Part shown: positions 4,933-63,910 of the stretch, piece by piece
Layout: each line of letters starts with the position of its first letter
Position numbering within the stretch: the first letter of the stretch is position 1
Notes under the pieces: generated by a model
Databases searched by the model: none
Told to the model about the DNA's origin: nothing
What the model saw: only the letters and a program-made list of their open reading frames with translations
DNA from: a virus
Taxonomy: Duplodnaviria > Caudoviricetes
Length of the DNA stretch: 64,000 nucleotides
Virus record (IMG/VR): IMGVR_UViG_3300028048_000124
Coordinates: 1-64,000 of that record
Direction: 5' to 3' (one strand)
Translations under genes and position numbers: made by a program

Positions 4933-5550
4933 TCATTTTTTGTGTCTTTGGTCGAAAACCTTCCTGTTGTTGTATTTGACGCTATATTCGTTTCTGATTT
5001 TCTTGACCTCGTCGTAGGCGGTGTTGACCGGGCCGTACTCCGGACAGTGCTTTGCATATGAGCAGGCCGAGACGATTGACTCGACGAATGAGAGCAGGAA
5101 TTTCATGATTTCCCACTTGTCGGAAACGTCGTCCTTTGCATCATAACTATGCACGGATTTGATTCCGTATTCGCAGCCTGTGCACAAACCCTCCTTCAGG
5201 GCGTTTTTAAGGGCCTTCAGAAGGTCGGCGTTGAAGAGGAAGTTCCGAAACCTGTACTCGCTGTATTTGAGGTTCCTGTCGGCCATGTTAACGAGATAGA
5301 TTTCGGCCTGGAAGACCTTCATCGAGGGAATCTCCCCGATGTGGTCGCTGCAGCATACGAACTTCAAATCGTTTCCGTCGCGCCAATGGGTGGTGAATGG
5401 GTTGGTCTTCGATGTGAACATGACGGCCAATGCGATGTTGGGGACGTCTGTCTCGAAAAGGTAAAGCGGGTGGTCTGACACCAATGTCCCGTCGTGGTTG
5501 ACGAACTTGCTGCAGAGGTAGGCTGTTCCTAGGATTCTCTTGATTTCCAT
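4933..5550 (-). CDS. hypothetical protein
   Basis: 205 aa, GAAAGGA SD. Confidence 0.7.
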   Translation of the reverse strand: MEIKRILGTAYLCSKFVNHDGTLVSDHPLYLFETDVPNIALAVMFTSKTNPFTTHWRDGNDLKFVCCSDHIGEIPSMKVFQAEIYLVNMADRNLKYSEYRFRNFLFNADLLKALKNALKEGLCTGCEYGIKSVHSYDAKDDVSDKWEIMKFLLSFVESIVSACSYAKHCPEYGPVNTAYDEVKKIRNEYSVKYNNRKVFDQRHKK

Positions 5551-5580
5551 AACGATGGTTTCCTTTCAAGGGTTTAAGTG

Positions 5581-5654
5581 TGGTGCCGGATACTCGAATC
5601 GAACGGGTGTCTAGGGGTTACGAAGCCCTTGTTCTGCCACTGAACTAATCCGGC
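5581..5654 (-). tRNA. tRNA-Thr(CGU), CCA encoded
   Basis: GCCGGAU/AUCCGGC acceptor stem, GUUC/GAAC D stem, anticodon loop UUCGUAA, T loop UUCGAUU, A73-CCA end. Two stem mismatches. Confidence 0.88.
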
Positions 5655-5665
5655 TTATCGTCTAT

Positions 5666-5694
5666 AGTATATATCAAAAAGAAAAAGGTGTCAA
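5666..5694 (-). promoter_or_regulatory. sigmaA-type promoter for the tRNA
   Basis: TTGACA-17-TATACT. Confidence 0.75.
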
Positions 5695-5713
5695 ATCATT
5701 TTCAATCGACACC
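5676..5713 (-). terminator. intrinsic terminator after nrdG
   Basis: GGTGTC...GACACC stem followed by TTTTTCTTTTT. It overlaps the -35 box of the tRNA promoter. Confidence 0.6.
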
Positions 5714-5722
5714 CTGATTTTC

Positions 5723-6349
5723 TTAGTCCTTGTTGTCTTCCGCGGTGATTATGAACCTCGCCGGATTGCCAACCTTTTCCTTGCGGAATTTATGTGTGAC
5801 GTTCATCCAGACGAGTTCTCCGTTGATTTCCTTCTTCTCGAATAGGAGTTGGTTGCTCCAGGGGAACTGCAACACGCCGTTGTTGGTTTGATGCCATTCC
5901 TCGACCGGTCCCTTCGGCATAATCCATCTGCCGATTTTGTAAAGGTCCAGGTTTTCGAGCAACTCCATGCCCAAGAACTCCCTGCCGCTGTACATCCCGA
6001 CCTTGAGTTCGGGATATTTGCCGTGGATGTACTTGGCGATTCTAACGACGTCCTTGTGGTCGCTGTCGCCGCCCATCAGGCCGAACACCGTGATTCCGGG
6101 ATTTTCAGCAATCAGTTTGTCGATTTCCTCATTTGTTAATAATGTACCAACATAGGGTCTCAACCAAGGCTCAGAGCACTGGGAACAGTGACAGACACAC
6201 CCTGTAATATTTACACATAGCGTAATTTCATCGGGAAACTCCGCAAATGTAACTGCTACATCATAGTACTTAAGCGGTTTACCAAGGGATTCATTTTCTT
6301 CTTCTTTATTTTTTAAGTTTAAGTCTTCCGTACATATATCCTTGAGCAT
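5723..6349 (-). CDS. nrdG: anaerobic ribonucleotide reductase activating enzyme (radical SAM)
   Basis: TFAEFPDEITLCVNITGCVCHCSQC (CxxxCxxC), LMGGD, YSG, KIG motifs. Near nrdD. Confidence 0.88.
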   Translation of the reverse strand: MLKDICTEDLNLKNKEEENESLGKPLKYYDVAVTFAEFPDEITLCVNITGCVCHCSQCSEPWLRPYVGTLLTNEEIDKLIAENPGITVFGLMGGDSDHKDVVRIAKYIHGKYPELKVGMYSGREFLGMELLENLDLYKIGRWIMPKGPVEEWHQTNNGVLQFPWSNQLLFEKKEINGELVWMNVTHKFRKEKVGNPARFIITAEDNKD

Positions 6350-6373
6350 AAGAATTTCCTTTCGTTGATATCG

Positions 6374-7510
6374 TTATTCGATTCCCCTTAGGTAGGACAT
6401 AGCCTCTATCTTGGAGAATCTTTCGAGAAGCGGTCTCAACGCATCCGAATCGAACGGTGACGTGGAATCGCCATCAAGATAATCGATTACGTCGTTAAGG
6501 GCCTGTGCTATCTTTTCTTCTGAATCGAGCCTTAGTTTGCTAACTCCGTACATCTTCATGAAACTGCTGATGAATTCGTCGGACAACTCCTGGTCGCTTA
6601 GGTCCCTGAGAACCTCAGGAATCTTCCCTTCGAAGTCGACCCCGTACTCATTCTCAAGCATCATGAAGTACGCTTGGCTTTTATTGTTTTTCGGAGGATA
6701 TTCCAACTCTCCCTCTATCTTGTAAATCTTCTTGGAGATTGAGTTCGCCATCTTCGGGAGGAATTGCTGCGAGTGCAGCCTTCTCGCCTCCGAACCGGGC
6801 ATGTCGGCAATCTCGAGTTTTCCCGTGTCGGAATTCAGATAGAACGCCTTGACCTCAGGGTCGTTTCTGACGACCTGGGTTTCTGACGCAGGCAACTCCC
6901 TGATGAACTTGGCGAGTTCCGTCTCTATCTTCTTCCTTGAGTGCGATAGGAAATATGTCCTGATGTCCTTTTGGCCGTCCCTGACGTCGTATGCCACGAA
7001 CTCGCAGAATGTGTTGCCAACCGGGATTTCCCTGCCGTCCGGTGAATTGGCGGCCGGGATGTTGTACTTCCTGTTGGCCCTTCTTCTTATCTTGATGAAC
7101 CTCTCATTGCCGTCATGTTCTGTCACCCACCCGATTACGGGGCCGAACCTGTCCTTTGAATCTCCGGTTGGAAGATATTCGGCCAATTCCAAAGCGTTTG
7201 CCTTGTATTCGCTCATTTGCCTCATTCTGGTTGGGCTTACCGACACGTCGACCTCGCTCTCGGGTGTGATTCCTATCGGTGGGAACTTCGGGTCTCCGAA
7301 ATCGAACTTCTCGCAATCCACGGTCCCGTCTCTCCTGGAGATGTTCGTCAGGACGTGTTTCTCAAGATGCCCGAATAAGTCCGCCGCATTCGAAAAACTC
7401 TCGGTCAACGCATCGTCGCAATCCCTGAACATTTCCTTGATGGATTCCGGGACCTCTCCGAAAGCGTTTATGAACAGTTCCTTTTCCGATATGCAATCAG
7501 ACTTACCCAT
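6374..7510 (-). CDS. orphan protein (378 aa) downstream of the structured RNA
   Basis: GGAGG SD with ATG at 7510. The ORF-track start at 7753 is the TTG of a -35 box. No family recognised. Confidence 0.7.
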   Translation of the reverse strand: MGKSDCISEKELFINAFGEVPESIKEMFRDCDDALTESFSNAADLFGHLEKHVLTNISRRDGTVDCEKFDFGDPKFPPIGITPESEVDVSVSPTRMRQMSEYKANALELAEYLPTGDSKDRFGPVIGWVTEHDGNERFIKIRRRANRKYNIPAANSPDGREIPVGNTFCEFVAYDVRDGQKDIRTYFLSHSRKKIETELAKFIRELPASETQVVRNDPEVKAFYLNSDTGKLEIADMPGSEARRLHSQQFLPKMANSISKKIYKIEGELEYPPKNNKSQAYFMMLENEYGVDFEGKIPEVLRDLSDQELSDEFISSFMKMYGVSKLRLDSEEKIAQALNDVIDYLDGDSTSPFDSDALRPLLERFSKIEAMSYLRGIE

Positions 7511-7524
7511 AACACCCTCCGAAT

Positions 7525-7719
7525 ATGCAAATACAACAAGAGTATCCTCCTGCCGTATCGCGATTAAGCCACATTCACCCAAGTGGCCCGGGACACGGAA
7601 TTTAATCCGGTTATAGTCAGTCTCGCCTCGCACTGACAGCCCCCGCTCGTTACCCCGGCGGAGGGAGGGACGTTTGGTCCGGCTCACGAAGTCCGGATAG
7701 GTGTCCCTCAACCTTACAT
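7525..7719 (-). ncRNA. unclassified highly structured RNA or 5' leader (~195 nt)
   Basis: Nested helices read by eye: AUGUAA/UUGCAU closing helix, GGUU/AACC, GAGGGAC/GUCCCUC, UCCGG/CCGGA, CCUCCGC/GCGGGGG, GUCAGU/ACUGAC, CCGUGUC/GAUACGG, GCCAC/GUGGC, CAGGAG/CUCUUG. It begins right after a perfect promoter. Confidence 0.6.
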
Positions 7720-7724
7720 CACCA

Positions 7725-7753
7725 ATTATACCAGAGGCATAACCGGATGTCAA
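7725..7753 (-). promoter_or_regulatory. perfect sigmaA promoter with extended -10 and A-rich UP element
   Basis: TTGACA-17-TATAAT with TG at the extended -10 position, preceded by AAAAAATAAAAAAT. Confidence 0.85.
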
Positions 7754-7805
7754 CGGCTATTTTTTATTTTTTACGAGAAGGTCAGCCTTCCTCCTCGATG
7801 ACAAC

Positions 7806-7834
7806 AGTATATCACTTATTTGATATACCGTCAA
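7806..7834 (-). promoter_or_regulatory. second, tandem sigmaA promoter
   Basis: TTGACG-17-TATACT overlapping the nrdD stop codon. Confidence 0.65.
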
Positions 7835-8319
7835 TCACTTAATTTAGCATCGTCTTCGTCCGAGTAGTGGGCATAGGCACGCTTGGCTGCCTCTTCCTGC
7901 CTGACTTGGCTGAAGTTGCTAACCCTCTTGAGGTAACCGATGATTCTCGTCGCGTAATCGACGTTTTTGGAACCGCAATTCGGGCACTCGTGGAGCATTC
8001 TCTTGTCGATGTGTCCGCACTCGTTGCAAATCGTGTTCGGGATGTTGTAGGTGAAGTAATTGCACCCGGCCTTTACAGCGACGTCCATTAGTTTCCTATA
8101 GGCCGCCTTGGTCAGATGGCTATCGAGGTTGCAATGCAACGCGACTCCGCCATCACATTCTGTGGCGAACCCGTTTCCCTGGTAGAAGAACTTCTTGGTC
8201 GGGCTGATGGATTTGTCCTCGACGGGATAGAAGTAGGAATTGTATAGGTTCCTGTTCTTGTTGACGACGTATCCGTCTTCCTTGTCCCATTTATACAACT
8301 TGGCACCTGCGTTTTCTGC
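7831..8319 (-). CDS. nrdD: class III ribonucleotide reductase, exon 2
   Basis: AENAGAKLYKWDK..., GG...H, Zn-site CNECG/CPNCGS and glycyl-radical loop TRIIGYL. Confidence 0.9.
   Translation of the reverse strand, partial: AENAGAKLYKWDKEDGYVVNKNRNLYNSYFYPVEDKSISPTKKFFYQGNGFATECDGGVALHCNLDSHLTKAAYRKLMDVAVKAGCNYFTYNIPNTICNECGHIDKRMLHECPNCGSKNVDYATRIIGYLKRVSNFSQVRQEEAAKRAYAHYSDEDDAKLSD
7835..7849 (-). promoter_or_regulatory. repeated phage promoter-like motif (variant)
   Basis: TGCTAAATTAAGTGA within the last nrdD codons. Confidence 0.5.
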
Positions 8320-8575
8320 CTTGCTATTACTTTATGACTGATTGTTTAATCAGCGGGAAAGGTGCTTCTTTAAAGTGTCTTTACACTTGACCTCTCCTCC
8401 CCAATTTCTCTTGATGCGTTATGTTTGGGGGTTAGACTGTTGCATCTACACATCATGTGTAGTCGGCTCATTCAGTCGTTGTAGGTGAACTTATCTTCCT
8501 AGGCGTTGCCTTCGTCAAGGGTTTCGCCGTATATTAGAGTCGATTTTAGATTCCCACAAATTATTTTAGAAGGCT
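8320..8575 (-). mobile_element. group I self-splicing intron in nrdD (256 nt, no endonuclease ORF)
   Basis: Removal restores ELIP|AENAG in frame. The 5' exon ends in U and the intron ends in G. P1 is AUUCCU with GGGAAU (terminal U-G). P7 is GACUG/CAGUC. P8 hairpin is CUACACA/UGUGUAG. Confidence 0.9.
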
Positions 8576-9961
8576 AGGAATCAATTCTGTGTTGTATCTG
8601 TGGTGTGCGTCCCTGTCCGCCGTGTTGACGGCCTTGATTGTCCCGAGGATGTCCCTTGCGAATTGCCTGTACCCCTCGTCGTTTGGGTCGGTCTTGATTC
8701 CGAGGTATTCCGCACCCTCGATGAATCCGTTGACGCCAACCGTGAGAAATTGCTTATCCAAATCGATGAACCCGGCGGTGTATACCGTTAGCATCCCTGA
8801 TTCGAAGTCATCCCAAATCTTCGAGTTCCAGGCGGATAGGTATTTATGGACCCTGGAGACGATTGGCTTGAGGTAATCGCTGAGCGAGACCTTTCTGCCT
8901 TCCCTGTCCCAGTTTTGGACGATTCTGTTGATGTTCAACGTGACGACGCACTTCGAACCGGTCTCGACGCCACCGGCCCCCAACGTATAGGAGAACACGT
9001 TGTCCTCGACCTCGTTTCTGAGTCTGCAGCACGATGCCAAGGCATCAACTGAGTCAGATTGGTACATGAAGAACGAATGCCCTTCAGACCACATCTCGGC
9101 GAAGAAGTCGGCCATCTCCTCATCCTTGTATTTTCCGTTCTCGACGAGGATGTTCGCGGTTTCGACCGGGAACGTTAGAACCTCCCTGGTTCTTTCCTTG
9201 TTGAACCATTTCATGAACAACTTCTGCAATTCCTTGGTGGTTTCCCAGCACGGCATATCAAAGTCGGGGAAGAAGAAATCCTTGAAGATGCTTTCGAAAT
9301 AGTATTTGTCGAAATACGCGATGTTGATGAACGGGGATTGGTAGTTCCTCGCACCGGCCGGTTGGTTGATTGAATAGACGAACTGTTGGAACCAATCCTC
9401 GATTTTGTGCTTCAACGTGAATTTATGTTCACCCACGCTCTCGACGATGTCGTCAAGGTGCTCGATGTAATCCTGACCGTAGTCGAGACGTAGGAAATGG
9501 TCAAAGTAGGTGAGGAACTCAGGGATTGCCACGGCACCGGCGAACTGACCGGCCACCAAGAACAATAGGTTTATGATTCCGCCGATGAAACTGTTTGCGT
9601 GCGTAGGTGCCGAACTTGAGCCACCCAAGTCCCTAAGGCCGTTCCTTAGATAAGGATACAGCGATATGCTTGCGCAATACGGGAATAGGGAAGACTCGTC
9701 GTTTTGGTAGATGATGTGGTTCCTTAGGTCCTCTAGGTATTTGTCCGAGATTTCCTTTCCGAAGTCCCTTTCCAGATAGTTGCAGGTGATTGTCCTTCTT
9801 AGGTCGATGATGTCCTTCTTGCCTAATTCGCATTGCAACGTTGCGATGTTCTTTTGGGTAACGTTCGCGTTTGAATCGAACTTGGACCCTGTTGCGGCGT
9901 TCTTCGCCGACTTATATTCCTCAATGAATTTGAGTTTTCTTGCGATTGTCCGTGAATCCAT
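8576..9961 (-). CDS. nrdD: class III ribonucleotide reductase, exon 1 (spliced product 624 aa, no ATP cone)
   Basis: YCASISL, QFAGAVA, SPFINI, TFPVET, ASCCRL, VVTLN, TVGVNG motifs of NrdD. Confidence 0.9.
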
Positions 9962-62285: not shown

Positions 62286-63910
62286 TATTCCTCTCCTCCT
62301 TCATCCTCGTCCTCTTCCGGACCCCTGAACGTTTTCCTTTTGTTGTCGTATGTGAACAGATGTCCCTGTCCTTCCGGTTCCTCTTCCTGGACACCCGGTT
62401 TCTTTTGGAACCTGTATTCGTTTCCCTTTCTGAACTTGCCCCTTTCATCCTTTCCGATGAAGCCCCTGTTAGTCGCTGCCTTCATCGTTTCCTTATCATC
62501 TAAGAACATTCCCTCGCCGCTGCCGTCCTCCTGGTCGAACAACGACAACTGAACCGCCTTGTCGTAAGGCATCCCGTAGATTTGCGGGAAGATGTAATCG
62601 GCGTAATTCCTTTGCATGTAATCCTTGCAATACTTGACGTAGTTGTTGATGACCGACGCAATCTTCATGCACCAACTCAAATTGCCCAAGACCAGGTTGA
62701 CGTGCTTGCATCCGGCACCTTTGTCATCCAGGTTGTTGGCCCCTATCGCACCGCCTTGTCCCTCCGGCTTAGGTGCGTATGTGGCACCGCCGACCGCGCT
62801 GTCGTAGCGGCCCTGCTTTGCCCACCAGTCCATCCTGTATTTCCAGTCCGGGCAGGTGCAGGACACGTACACGTCTCCGGTGTTCAACGACTTCATCAAC
62901 GATTTGATTACGGTGCTGAACTCGAACTTCATGTTGTTCCTCTTGACTTCGTCCTGTATGTTCTTCAGGATGTTCTCGAAAGTGACCCTGACGACATAGT
63001 CGTCGGTCTCGCCGTGGACGTTGATGTCGAAGTCGAGTATATCGCCCTTCCAGAACGCGTTCATGTCGATTCTGTTGTAGTCCCTGACAGAGGTGGCTAC
63101 ACGTGAGTGAAGCCTTCTCTCCCATCTGTTTTTGCCTTTCGATTTATCGCCACGGTATTCGGCCCCGCCTTTTGATTTGTTAATCAAATCCTGCCTGGTT
63201 TTCTCAAGGAGCAACGATTCCGTGACCCTTGCCGGTTCCCTGATTCCGAGTTCCGCCAAGGTCTTGTTTCCGCCTTGCCTGTTAATTGGCATGATGTGGT
63301 GGTCTATTAGGATGTCGGCAACCTCCTCGTCGTCCAACAACCTGTTGACCTTCATCTGTCCGGTGATAATCCAGGGGACGGTATCAGGTCTAGGATTCGT
63401 CCTGTATCTATAATAACCGTGGCTGGGTATCTTCGTCAAGCCTGCGAGCGAATGCTGATACCTGTCGCTTCTGTATGTCCTGACGTTTCCGTCGTCATCC
63501 ATCTTGGTCCTCATGAACCCCTGTTCGTCGGACTCCGGTTGATAGTCGACGTCCATTGCGTATTCGCACTCGGCCCAAACGAAATCGGCTGGGAATTCAG
63601 GTTCCCCCGTTTCCTTGTTCTTTCTATCGAACTGAGGTGCCCTCGGGACATCGCCCAAGTGCCAACCGGGGCGATAGGAAAGCGTTCCGCTGCCGGTCGA
63701 TTTGACCTGTTGCCTTCCGGTCTTCGACAATCCGGCCAACTCCCCTTCCTCGGCGTCAAGCCATACCCCGATGGGAGTATCCTCCCCGCCAGGATTCGCT
63801 ACCATGGGAGGATAGAGTTTTCCGTTCTTGACCCTGAAGACCTTGTATGCCACGCCCGTTTTTCCGGGTGCGTATCCGTCTTTCGCTTTTCTTTCCAGTA
63901 TATCAGCCAT
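62285..63910 (-). CDS. two-domain protein: polyvalent-type N-terminal domain (possibly ART-like) plus SWIM zinc finger
   Basis: AYKVF..GKLYPPM..YRPGWH..VWAECEY; linker VTESLLLE; VSCTCPDW...GCKHV. Confidence 0.55.
   Translation of the reverse strand: MADILERKAKDGYAPGKTGVAYKVFRVKNGKLYPPMVANPGGEDTPIGVWLDAEEGELAGLSKTGRQQVKSTGSGTLSYRPGWHLGDVPRAPQFDRKNKETGEPEFPADFVWAECEYAMDVDYQPESDEQGFMRTKMDDDGNVRTYRSDRYQHSLAGLTKIPSHGYYRYRTNPRPDTVPWIITGQMKVNRLLDDEEVADILIDHHIMPINRQGGNKTLAELGIREPARVTESLLLEKTRQDLINKSKGGAEYRGDKSKGKNRWERRLHSRVATSVRDYNRIDMNAFWKGDILDFDINVHGETDDYVVRVTFENILKNIQDEVKRNNMKFEFSTVIKSLMKSLNTGDVYVSCTCPDWKYRMDWWAKQGRYDSAVGGATYAPKPEGQGGAIGANNLDDKGAGCKHVNLVLGNLSWCMKIASVINNYVKYCKDYMQRNYADYIFPQIYGMPYDKAVQLSLFDQEDGSGEGMFLDDKETMKAATNRGFIGKDERGKFRKGNEYRFQKKPGVQEEEPEGQGHLFTYDNKRKTFRGPEEDEDEGGEE

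Follow-up and report, generated by a model that had tools for sequence, protein, structure and literature searches.

A predicted structured leader RNA and an orphan protein gene form a cassette at the nrdD/nrdG junction of a T4-like phage

The region between the genes nrdD and nrdG was analyzed in a 64,000-nucleotide (nt) stretch of viral DNA (the window), which is part of the 76-kb, ~44% complete IMG/VR virus record IMGVR_UViG_3300028048_000124. Here, an acidic orphan protein of 378 amino acids (aa) is encoded by an open reading frame (ORF), ORF378, which follows a long leader with extensive predicted RNA structure. The reading that we favor, at a probability of roughly 0.55, is an acquired early-gene cassette at the nrdD/nrdG junction with a leader that acts in cis to control translation. 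The analysis covered the promoters of this cassette, its status as an insertion, the non-coding nature of its leader, fold predictions and their statistics, and how well near-identical copies are conserved. The features of the cassette are as follows.

7835-7849, minus strand: late-type promoter motif TGCTAAATTAAGTGA, overlapping the final nrdD codons
7806-7834, minus strand: sigma-70-type promoter TTGACG-17-TATACT, 10/12 in the promoter scan
7725-7753, minus strand: perfect sigma-70-type promoter TTGACA-17-TATAAT (12/12), with TG before the -10 element and an A-rich upstream tract
7524-7719, minus strand: domain I, a multi-branched RNA of 196 nt with a minimum free energy (MFE) of -80.5 kcal/mol
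7664-7677, minus strand: segment CCAAACGUCCCUCC within domain I, complementary to the Shine-Dalgarno (SD) sequence (anti-SD), with GAGGGAC (7709-7703) or the SD/AUG region (7520-7507) as alternative partners
7364-7518, minus strand: domain II, a long imperfect hairpin of ~60 base pairs (bp) that holds the SD, the AUG and codons 1-49
6374-7510, minus strand: ORF378, acidic orphan protein, 378 aa, isoelectric point (pI) 4.9

The leader is predicted to form a large structured domain

When folded alone, domain I had a z-score of -3.10, and none of 200 dinucleotide shuffles was equally stable. Its closing helix (AUGUA/UGCAU) joins the predicted 5′ end of the transcript to a site 5 nt upstream of the SD, and the MFE structure further contains a GGUU/AACC junction helix, three hairpins, and then three further hairpins. 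The closing helix, the junction and the first three hairpins had already been drawn in an earlier note made from the sequence alone, and all of them recur in the MFE structure; the second arm proposed there (CCGUGUC/GAUACGG) appears only in a 170-nt prefix, and in the full RNA GAUACGG pairs downstream within a 13-bp hairpin. A scan of the whole minus strand with correction for GC content showed that 7560-7840 is the most structured stretch of the 64 kb, containing 6 of the 12 most structured 196-nt windows.

A search with Rfam 15, whose models include riboswitches, ribozymes, RNase P, SRP, tmRNA, 6S and HEARO, found no family at the gathering threshold, and 6 kb of sequence searched at E ≤ 1 yielded tRNA-Thr alone. 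For the isolated 271 nt of 7490-7760 at E ≤ 10, the sole result was a chance match to P35 (14.7 bits, against a gathering score of 70). The same 271 nt gave no match to RF00028 at E ≤ 10, and a group I intron was rejected as an identity for domain I; nrdD is complete upstream of domain I (its Pfam profile is matched to position 560 of 562), and nrdG begins after ORF378. A covariance model built from the single sequence of domain I detected no second copy in its own record, in four related records or in 11 related loci, and no match in the T4 tRNA/rnaC/rnaD region, the best score being 5.6 bits elsewhere in that locus. DNA patterns of two domain I stems gave 0 matches in IMG/VR and JGI metagenomes, and blastn of 7360-7860 against phage records gave none. 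Within 6000-8800 of the minus strand no terminator-like site was found, including the interval between domain I and ORF378. Together with the codon statistics given below, the fold predictions and searches support domain I as a real, non-coding, unusually structured RNA that matches no known family.

The second strongest outlier of the GC-corrected scan is located at 1645-1840 on the minus strand (-71.9 kcal/mol, residual z -4.4), where a perfect 15-bp hairpin lies just upstream of GAGGAGG at the junction of the ORFs 2972-1803 and 1787-312.

Promoters of the cassette

The promoter at 7753, which is one of two 12/12 sites in the 64 kb, has a predicted transcription start near 7719. Downstream of the promoter at 7834 there is a short hairpin (~7797-7774) followed by an A-rich tract. 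At 7849-7835, 325 nt ahead of the ORF378 ATG, lies a 15-nt motif that differs from TGCTAAATTAAATGA by one mismatch, and the variant CTAAATTAA[AG]TGA occurs in 14 copies, all on the minus strand and mostly 11-50 nt upstream of late-gene starts. Comparable minus-strand sigma-70-like sites cluster in the early region (340, 4726, 4931, 5694, 7753, 7834 and 11812); the leader is at most 30 nt at 340, 4726, 4931 and 11812, and reaches 208 nt only at 7753. Within 7719-7364 on the minus strand, neither a copy or near-copy of the late motif (≥10/15) nor a sigma-70-like site was detected. These scans and the Rfam searches bear out two claims of the earlier note, namely that two promoters and a repeated phage motif point into the RNA and that the RNA matches no known family.

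A perfect 10-nt complementarity was also observed between 7739-7748, in the spacer of the 7753 promoter, and 7605-7614, in the P2/hairpin region of domain I. It exists only in transcripts from the upstream promoters, and in folds of longer transcripts the promoter region forms a hairpin of its own instead. Elsewhere in the early region, a TTGACA-17-TATACT promoter (11/12) at 5666-5694 on the minus strand ends 11 nt before tRNA-Thr(CGU), and this tRNA gene is thus considered to have its own early-type promoter.

The SD and start codon lie in two alternative predicted helices

In the 220-nt fold, positions 7677-7664 pair with 7520-7507 (GGAGGG..AUGG) with probabilities of 0.74-0.94. The GUCCCUC of this anti-SD segment can alternatively pair with GAGGGAC at 7709-7703, which is a hairpin drawn in the earlier note. 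The fold with a free SD has an energy of -80.5 kcal/mol versus -85.4 kcal/mol for the fold with a paired SD; when prefixes of increasing length are folded, it is the free-SD structure that forms.

The second helix is domain II (MFE -62 kcal/mol, z -4.22, 0 of 200 shuffles equally stable), which also stands out against permuted synonymous codons (z -4.2). Its base is formed by codons 37-49 on one side and by the SD, the AUG and codons 1-13 on the other, with positions 7518-7507 lying opposite 7364-7374. In the 355-nt fold, domain II persists and domain I is intact. The SD and AUG are predicted to be paired in all contexts folded, and this placing of both the SD and the start codon in a stable mRNA structure is the arrangement seen in the T-even type of control; no late or middle promoter whose transcript would omit the 5′ arm was found within 7719-7364. 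Among 60 gene starts, the 220 nt before the ORF378 start had the lowest MFE (-85.4 versus -53.8 ± 8.3 kcal/mol).

The 3′ arm of domain II encodes LTESF..DLF.HL, a segment kept in distant homologs of ORF378, and the 5′ arm encodes a non-conserved N-terminus. This distribution fits an ORF378 N-terminus that may have adapted to pair with a constrained downstream segment. The nucleotide changes inferred within domain II are indecisive, with G2E, I7V and D33G keeping the pairing and E19D and R29K breaking it; the codon of the hypervariable G47 is unpaired.

The leader is conserved and is probably not translated

The ORF378 protein cluster has nine members with 90-100% identity, which come from Logan, ENA and JGI assemblies. 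Two of these contigs were called with the upstream frame, P0012 (81 codons, ORF body 97% identical) and P0001 (41 codons, ORF body 96% identical). Across the 80 + 40 leader codons compared, the two contain 0 amino-acid-changing substitutions, and their ORF bodies differ by 3-4%. The conservation of the leader has a P of ~0.015, since about four changes would be expected at the rate of the body and none was seen. This identity shows either constraint or very recent shared ancestry, and it is no evidence of structure.

As the earlier note had cautioned, there is no in-frame stop codon from 7753 to 7511 (81 codons; P = 0.022 in shuffles), and each of the other frames has 6 stops. The codon score of this extension is -0.09 versus 0.62 ± 0.22 for gene windows, below 99.5% of coding windows, and its pattern of GC by codon position is not gene-like. 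TTG 7753 is the -35 hexamer of the promoter and has no SD, and transcription is predicted to start downstream of it. The ATG at 7510 is preceded at a distance of 5 nt by the strong SD GGAGG (7520-7516). All distant ORF378 homologs start at the position of this Met 7510 (M1). Six of the nine gene calls give 378-379 aa, and forms of 459 aa and 419 aa were called on three contigs. Given the low codon score, the coincidence of TTG 7753 with the -35 hexamer and the start of homologs at M1, we treated the leader as non-coding. Judged on these data, translation of the 81-codon extension is very unlikely, and the broader proposal of an N-terminal extension of 81 codons (from TTG 7753) or 41 codons (from GTG 7633) is barely credible, despite the stop-free frame, the longer gene calls and the 100% conservation of the translated extension.

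The cassette is an insertion at the nrdD/nrdG junction

The genes surrounding the cassette are all on the minus strand, in the order thioredoxin-like gene, nrdD, cassette, nrdG and tRNA-Thr.

10431-9967, minus strand: thioredoxin-like gene
9961-8564 and 8298-7834, minus strand: nrdD in two pieces, matching positions 24-414 and 424-560 of the Pfam NRDD profile
6349-5726, minus strand: nrdG
6278-6349, minus strand: AT-rich (29% GC) N-terminal extension of nrdG, 24 codons, without counterpart in relatives
5654-5581, minus strand: tRNA-Thr, the sole ARAGORN match

In the nearest relatives, L010 and L012, whose nrdG is 72-74% identical, nrdD and nrdG are ~30 nt apart or overlap, which agrees with the remark of the earlier note that these two genes are often adjacent. 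Another relative, L011, has a small ORF in the gap. In L020 the gap holds a 329-aa ORF (5016-6005) in which a ~35-residue repeat of the type K(E/K)TCLEKYGV occurs four times, and L017 (4099-6035) has three ORFs there, namely an HNH gene, a thioredoxin gene and one of 238 aa. The differing ORFs carried here by L020 and L017 make the nrdD/nrdG junction an insertion hot spot, and in T4 the same junction is occupied by the HNH gene mobC (PMC2988022). The ORF378 family was not found in five related phage records, four of which are at least 90% complete. By this comparison of gene order, the 1.5-kb cassette between nrdD and nrdG of this T4-like phage is an insertion. The start of nrdG also differs from its relatives, which begin with MLK(V/Y)YD; the protein of the window has MLK, 22 additional residues and then LKYYD. 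From the sequence, this extension is probably the right-hand scar or edge of the insertion and may represent a remodelled 5′ end.

Within nrdD itself, the reading frame is interrupted at 8320-8575 (minus strand) by a 256-nt stretch that contains no ORF, with U preceding the stretch and G at its end. Rfam Intron_gpI (RF00028) matches it over the full model length with 19.7 bits (E 0.006), below the threshold. Excision of the 256 nt gives a NrdD of 624 aa with the junction YNTELIP|AENAGAK, which matches relatives with a continuous gene, and the stretch is probably a group I intron by these sequence features. Insertions of 0.8-1.8 kb occur within nrdD of three relatives, near residue 312 of the window protein (L013:3181-4953, L015:4044-4870 and L016:3812-4638); they may represent either an ORF-containing intron or an intein.

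A cis-acting leader as the favored reading

In the mechanism that we propose, a T4-like phage would have gained the 1.5-kb cassette between nrdD and nrdG, where selfish genes are known to insert. The cassette would have brought its own early sigma-70-type promoters together with the gene for the orphan acidic protein, and the 208-nt leader would control translation in cis. Domain I would fold first, co-transcriptionally. The SD and AUG would then be trapped, either by the anti-SD of domain I or, in the full mRNA, by codons 37-49 in the ~60-bp hairpin, and ribosome loading would be limited to the short interval before the 3′ arm is synthesized or to the time after the structure has been opened. 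RNase III-type cleavage within the long helix, a factor bound to domain I, or temperature might bring about this opening, and the outcome would be a low or timed dose of ORF378. It is the folding in vivo, the limit on translation and the way of opening that we infer here.

The earlier note had proposed an undescribed RNA-protein module or a new riboswitch or ribozyme. Of that proposal, the structured non-coding RNA of no known family, the strong promoters, the orphan protein and the insertion stand, and a cis-acting leader is the simpler reading because no terminator separates the RNA from the ORF, the SD and AUG lie in two alternative helices, the protein is acidic, and T-even phages offer a precedent. 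In these phages, hairpins that sequester the ribosome-binding site (RBS) control I-TevI, I-TevII, I-TevIII, segB and mobE, and also soc, e, 39, 25 and 26 (PMC2988022). The domain II hairpin, the anti-SD pairing, the status of the cassette as an insertion, the very small and acidic ORF378 family with no known fold, and its module fusion, both described below, are new here relative to the earlier note.

Several points weigh against control by a cis-acting leader. The T-even cases consist of one simple hairpin plus an internal late promoter, and no promoter was found inside the structures here. A multi-branched domain of 196 nt far exceeds what sequestration needs, and all folds are thermodynamic predictions. 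Against resampled synonymous codons, domain II reaches just z -2.3. With a mean pairing probability of 0.73, the SD region ranks only 7th of the 60 gene starts, and sequestration alone is therefore not exceptional. Finally, the frame through the leader is open, at the P of 0.022 given above.

Alternative readings of the leader RNA

Three further explanations were considered, in decreasing order of probability. The first, which we regard as quite unlikely, is that domain I is a stand-alone stable RNA, either released from the transcript or serving as the RNA partner of ORF378 in a ribonucleoprotein (RNP) or an RNA-guided or RNA-regulated enzyme. As in stable RNAs, the closing helix of domain I brings the predicted 5′ terminus and the 3′ end together, and it begins at the predicted transcription start; a comparable promoter nearby (5694) drives a tRNA directly, the near-identical copies differ less in the leader than in the ORF, and the complexity of the fold is far above the needs of sequestration. 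However, neither a terminator nor a recognizable processing site was found downstream of domain I (minus strand, 6000-8800), ORF378 has a pI of 4.9 and no recognizable nucleic-acid-binding or nuclease domain, and no further copy or homolog of the RNA was detected in the records and loci scanned with the covariance model, including the T4 rnaC/rnaD region.

It is improbable, and less so than the next proposal, that the structure arose by chance or is a relic within horizontally acquired DNA, the leader having no function beyond that of a long 5′ untranslated region. The z-scores of -3.1 and -4.2 were picked after scanning, and with copies that are 90-100% identical, the identity of the leader may reflect recent common descent or recombination. 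Yet two adjacent independent domains are both outliers, the leader has fewer amino-acid-changing substitutions than the ORF, and the boundaries of the fold match the predicted start and the SD; moreover, the other early promoters of the window have leaders of at most 30 nt.

The third proposal, in which domain I would serve as the aptamer of an undescribed riboswitch or as a switch that binds a protein or senses temperature, is very doubtful. In such a switch, GAGGGAC, GUCCCUCC and GGAGGG would act as anti-anti-SD, anti-SD and SD, respectively. The two near-isoenergetic folds that differ in the state of the SD (-80.5 kcal/mol free versus -85.4 kcal/mol paired), the formation of the free-SD fold first in the prefix series, the multi-stem junction that starts at the transcription start, and the strong conservation are consistent with it. 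In the longer mRNA, however, the SD is predicted to be buried in the coding hairpin with domain I intact, and an internal switch in domain I is not needed for repression because the coding hairpin already buries the SD. Further points against a switch are that neither an Rfam family nor RNA homologs were found in the searches and records scanned, that ORF378 offers no hint of a ligand, and that sequences with many GGAGG and CCUCC stretches often allow alternative pairings.

Taken together, a stable RNA, an RNP and a riboswitch account for a minor share of our expectation; the complexity and conservation of domain I give them some room, and the fold itself is their sole positive support. That domain I represents a new class of structured RNA, acting as a ligand- or protein-sensing switch or as a partner of ORF378 in a mobile early module of T4-like phages, is unlikely.

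Comparison with known systems

T4 mobC has the same insertion site, between the anaerobic reductase and activase genes (PMC2988022, Table 1). It is a promoter-less HNH cassette (PMC2988022), whereas the ORF378 cassette comes with two sigma-70-type promoters, and its protein has no match to an HNH, GIY-YIG or other nuclease model. The T-even genes with RBS-sequestering hairpins (I-TevI, I-TevII, I-TevIII, segB and Aeh1 mobE, with T4 soc, e, 39, 25 and 26; PMC2988022) provide the closest mechanistic parallel to a cis-acting leader. As in the T-even endonuclease cassettes, the gene lies in or next to nrd genes, a consensus SD is buried by a stable RNA structure (here predicted), and the translation dose is presumably restricted. 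In contrast, the T-even structure is a single short hairpin bypassed through an internal late promoter, whereas here a ~60-bp hairpin is combined with a 196-nt domain, all three promoter-like sites are upstream of both domains, and ORF378 has no endonuclease motif.

Similar to riboswitch expression platforms, the leader has a junction-type 5′ domain at the transcription start and predicted, mutually exclusive anti-SD pairings; unlike riboswitches, the isolated leader matched no Rfam model at E ≤ 10. The MS2 maturation-protein leader is under kinetic translation control through delayed long-range folding. There, the SD pairs with a complement far upstream, which closes a domain of several hairpins, and translation is possible on nascent RNA only, which resembles the scheme proposed for ORF378. 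MS2 is, however, an RNA phage of unrelated sequence, and the likeness is one of mechanism only, drawn from predicted folds. T4 rnaC and rnaD (species 1 and 2) are structured small stable RNAs of 120-140 nt located beside tRNA genes. Domain I is likewise a phage-encoded structured RNA near a tRNA gene in a T4-type genome, but it showed no covariance-model match to them, and downstream of them there is no ORF with an SD that they contact.

T4-type phages are a model for RNA structures that hide the RBS of selfish gene cassettes. The cassette described here departs from the known cases in its uncharacterized protein family, its own strong early promoters, and a leader that is several times larger and more elaborate. 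If the leader merely throttles translation, a known theme would be extended; should the 196-nt domain act as a sensor or cooperate with ORF378, it would constitute a new class of phage RNA.

ORF378 belongs to a rare protein family with a modular homolog

The 378-aa product had been described in the earlier note as having no recognizable motif, and profile searches led to the same result. ORF378 and seven homologs had no match in Pfam, PHROG or NCBIfam at E ≤ 0.01-0.1, and ORF378 had none in PADLOC, in a sequence profile search of the PDB or in the ESM Atlas. In these searches, neither a family profile nor a catalytic motif of homing endonucleases (HNH, GIY-YIG, LAGLIDADG and others) was matched. 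Among 1.84 billion representative proteins, ORF378 has 8 relatives, all of them unnamed metagenome proteins. A tblastn search of 50,697 phage records and protein searches of IMG/VR, JGI metagenome contigs and GTDB genome contigs returned nothing for ORF378, searches of IMG/VR and of the phage records did not recover the homologs P0003 and P0004, and the window contains no paralog of ORF378 proper.

Two AF2 models of ORF378 have predicted local distance difference test (pLDDT) scores of 61-63 and are confident only for residues 220-365. Foldseek found no match to the models in the PDB or BFVD at E ≤ 0.001. The VIA wide search with these partly confident models gave best Z values of 6.0 (WGR domain, 77 residues, root-mean-square deviation (rmsd) 3.2) and 6.9 (Gse1p, 103 residues, rmsd 4.0), neither of which exceeds the noise range stated for the tool. 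The WGR-like match of residues ~106-214 is a lead only.

The homolog P0006 (650 aa) consists of an ORF378-like half fused to another C-terminal half. This second half aligns at 43% identity (E 4e-80) with residues 227-518 of a late-gene product encoded in the window.

62288-63910, minus strand: late gene directly after a late motif; 541-aa product with an N-terminal half matching phrog_30118 (unknown function)

The C-terminal half of the 541-aa protein bears a CxC...CxH module that is shared with P0006. Neither module of the fusion matches a Pfam model, and an identity of the CxC...CxH module as a SWIM finger was not confirmed by Pfam. By its sequence, the 541-aa late protein is possibly a virion-associated, module-swapping carrier. 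In polyvalent proteins, effector modules are swapped on a virion-associated carrier and also occur as solo, early-expressed versions, a combination described for conflict proteins that act early (PMC5512222). The ORF378-type module likewise exists both solo and fused (in P0006), a link to polyvalent proteins (PMC5512222) that is one of domain architecture only. Because the fusion in P0006 resembles this pattern, the analogy suggests that ORF378 may have an early-acting role in host takeover or counter-defence.

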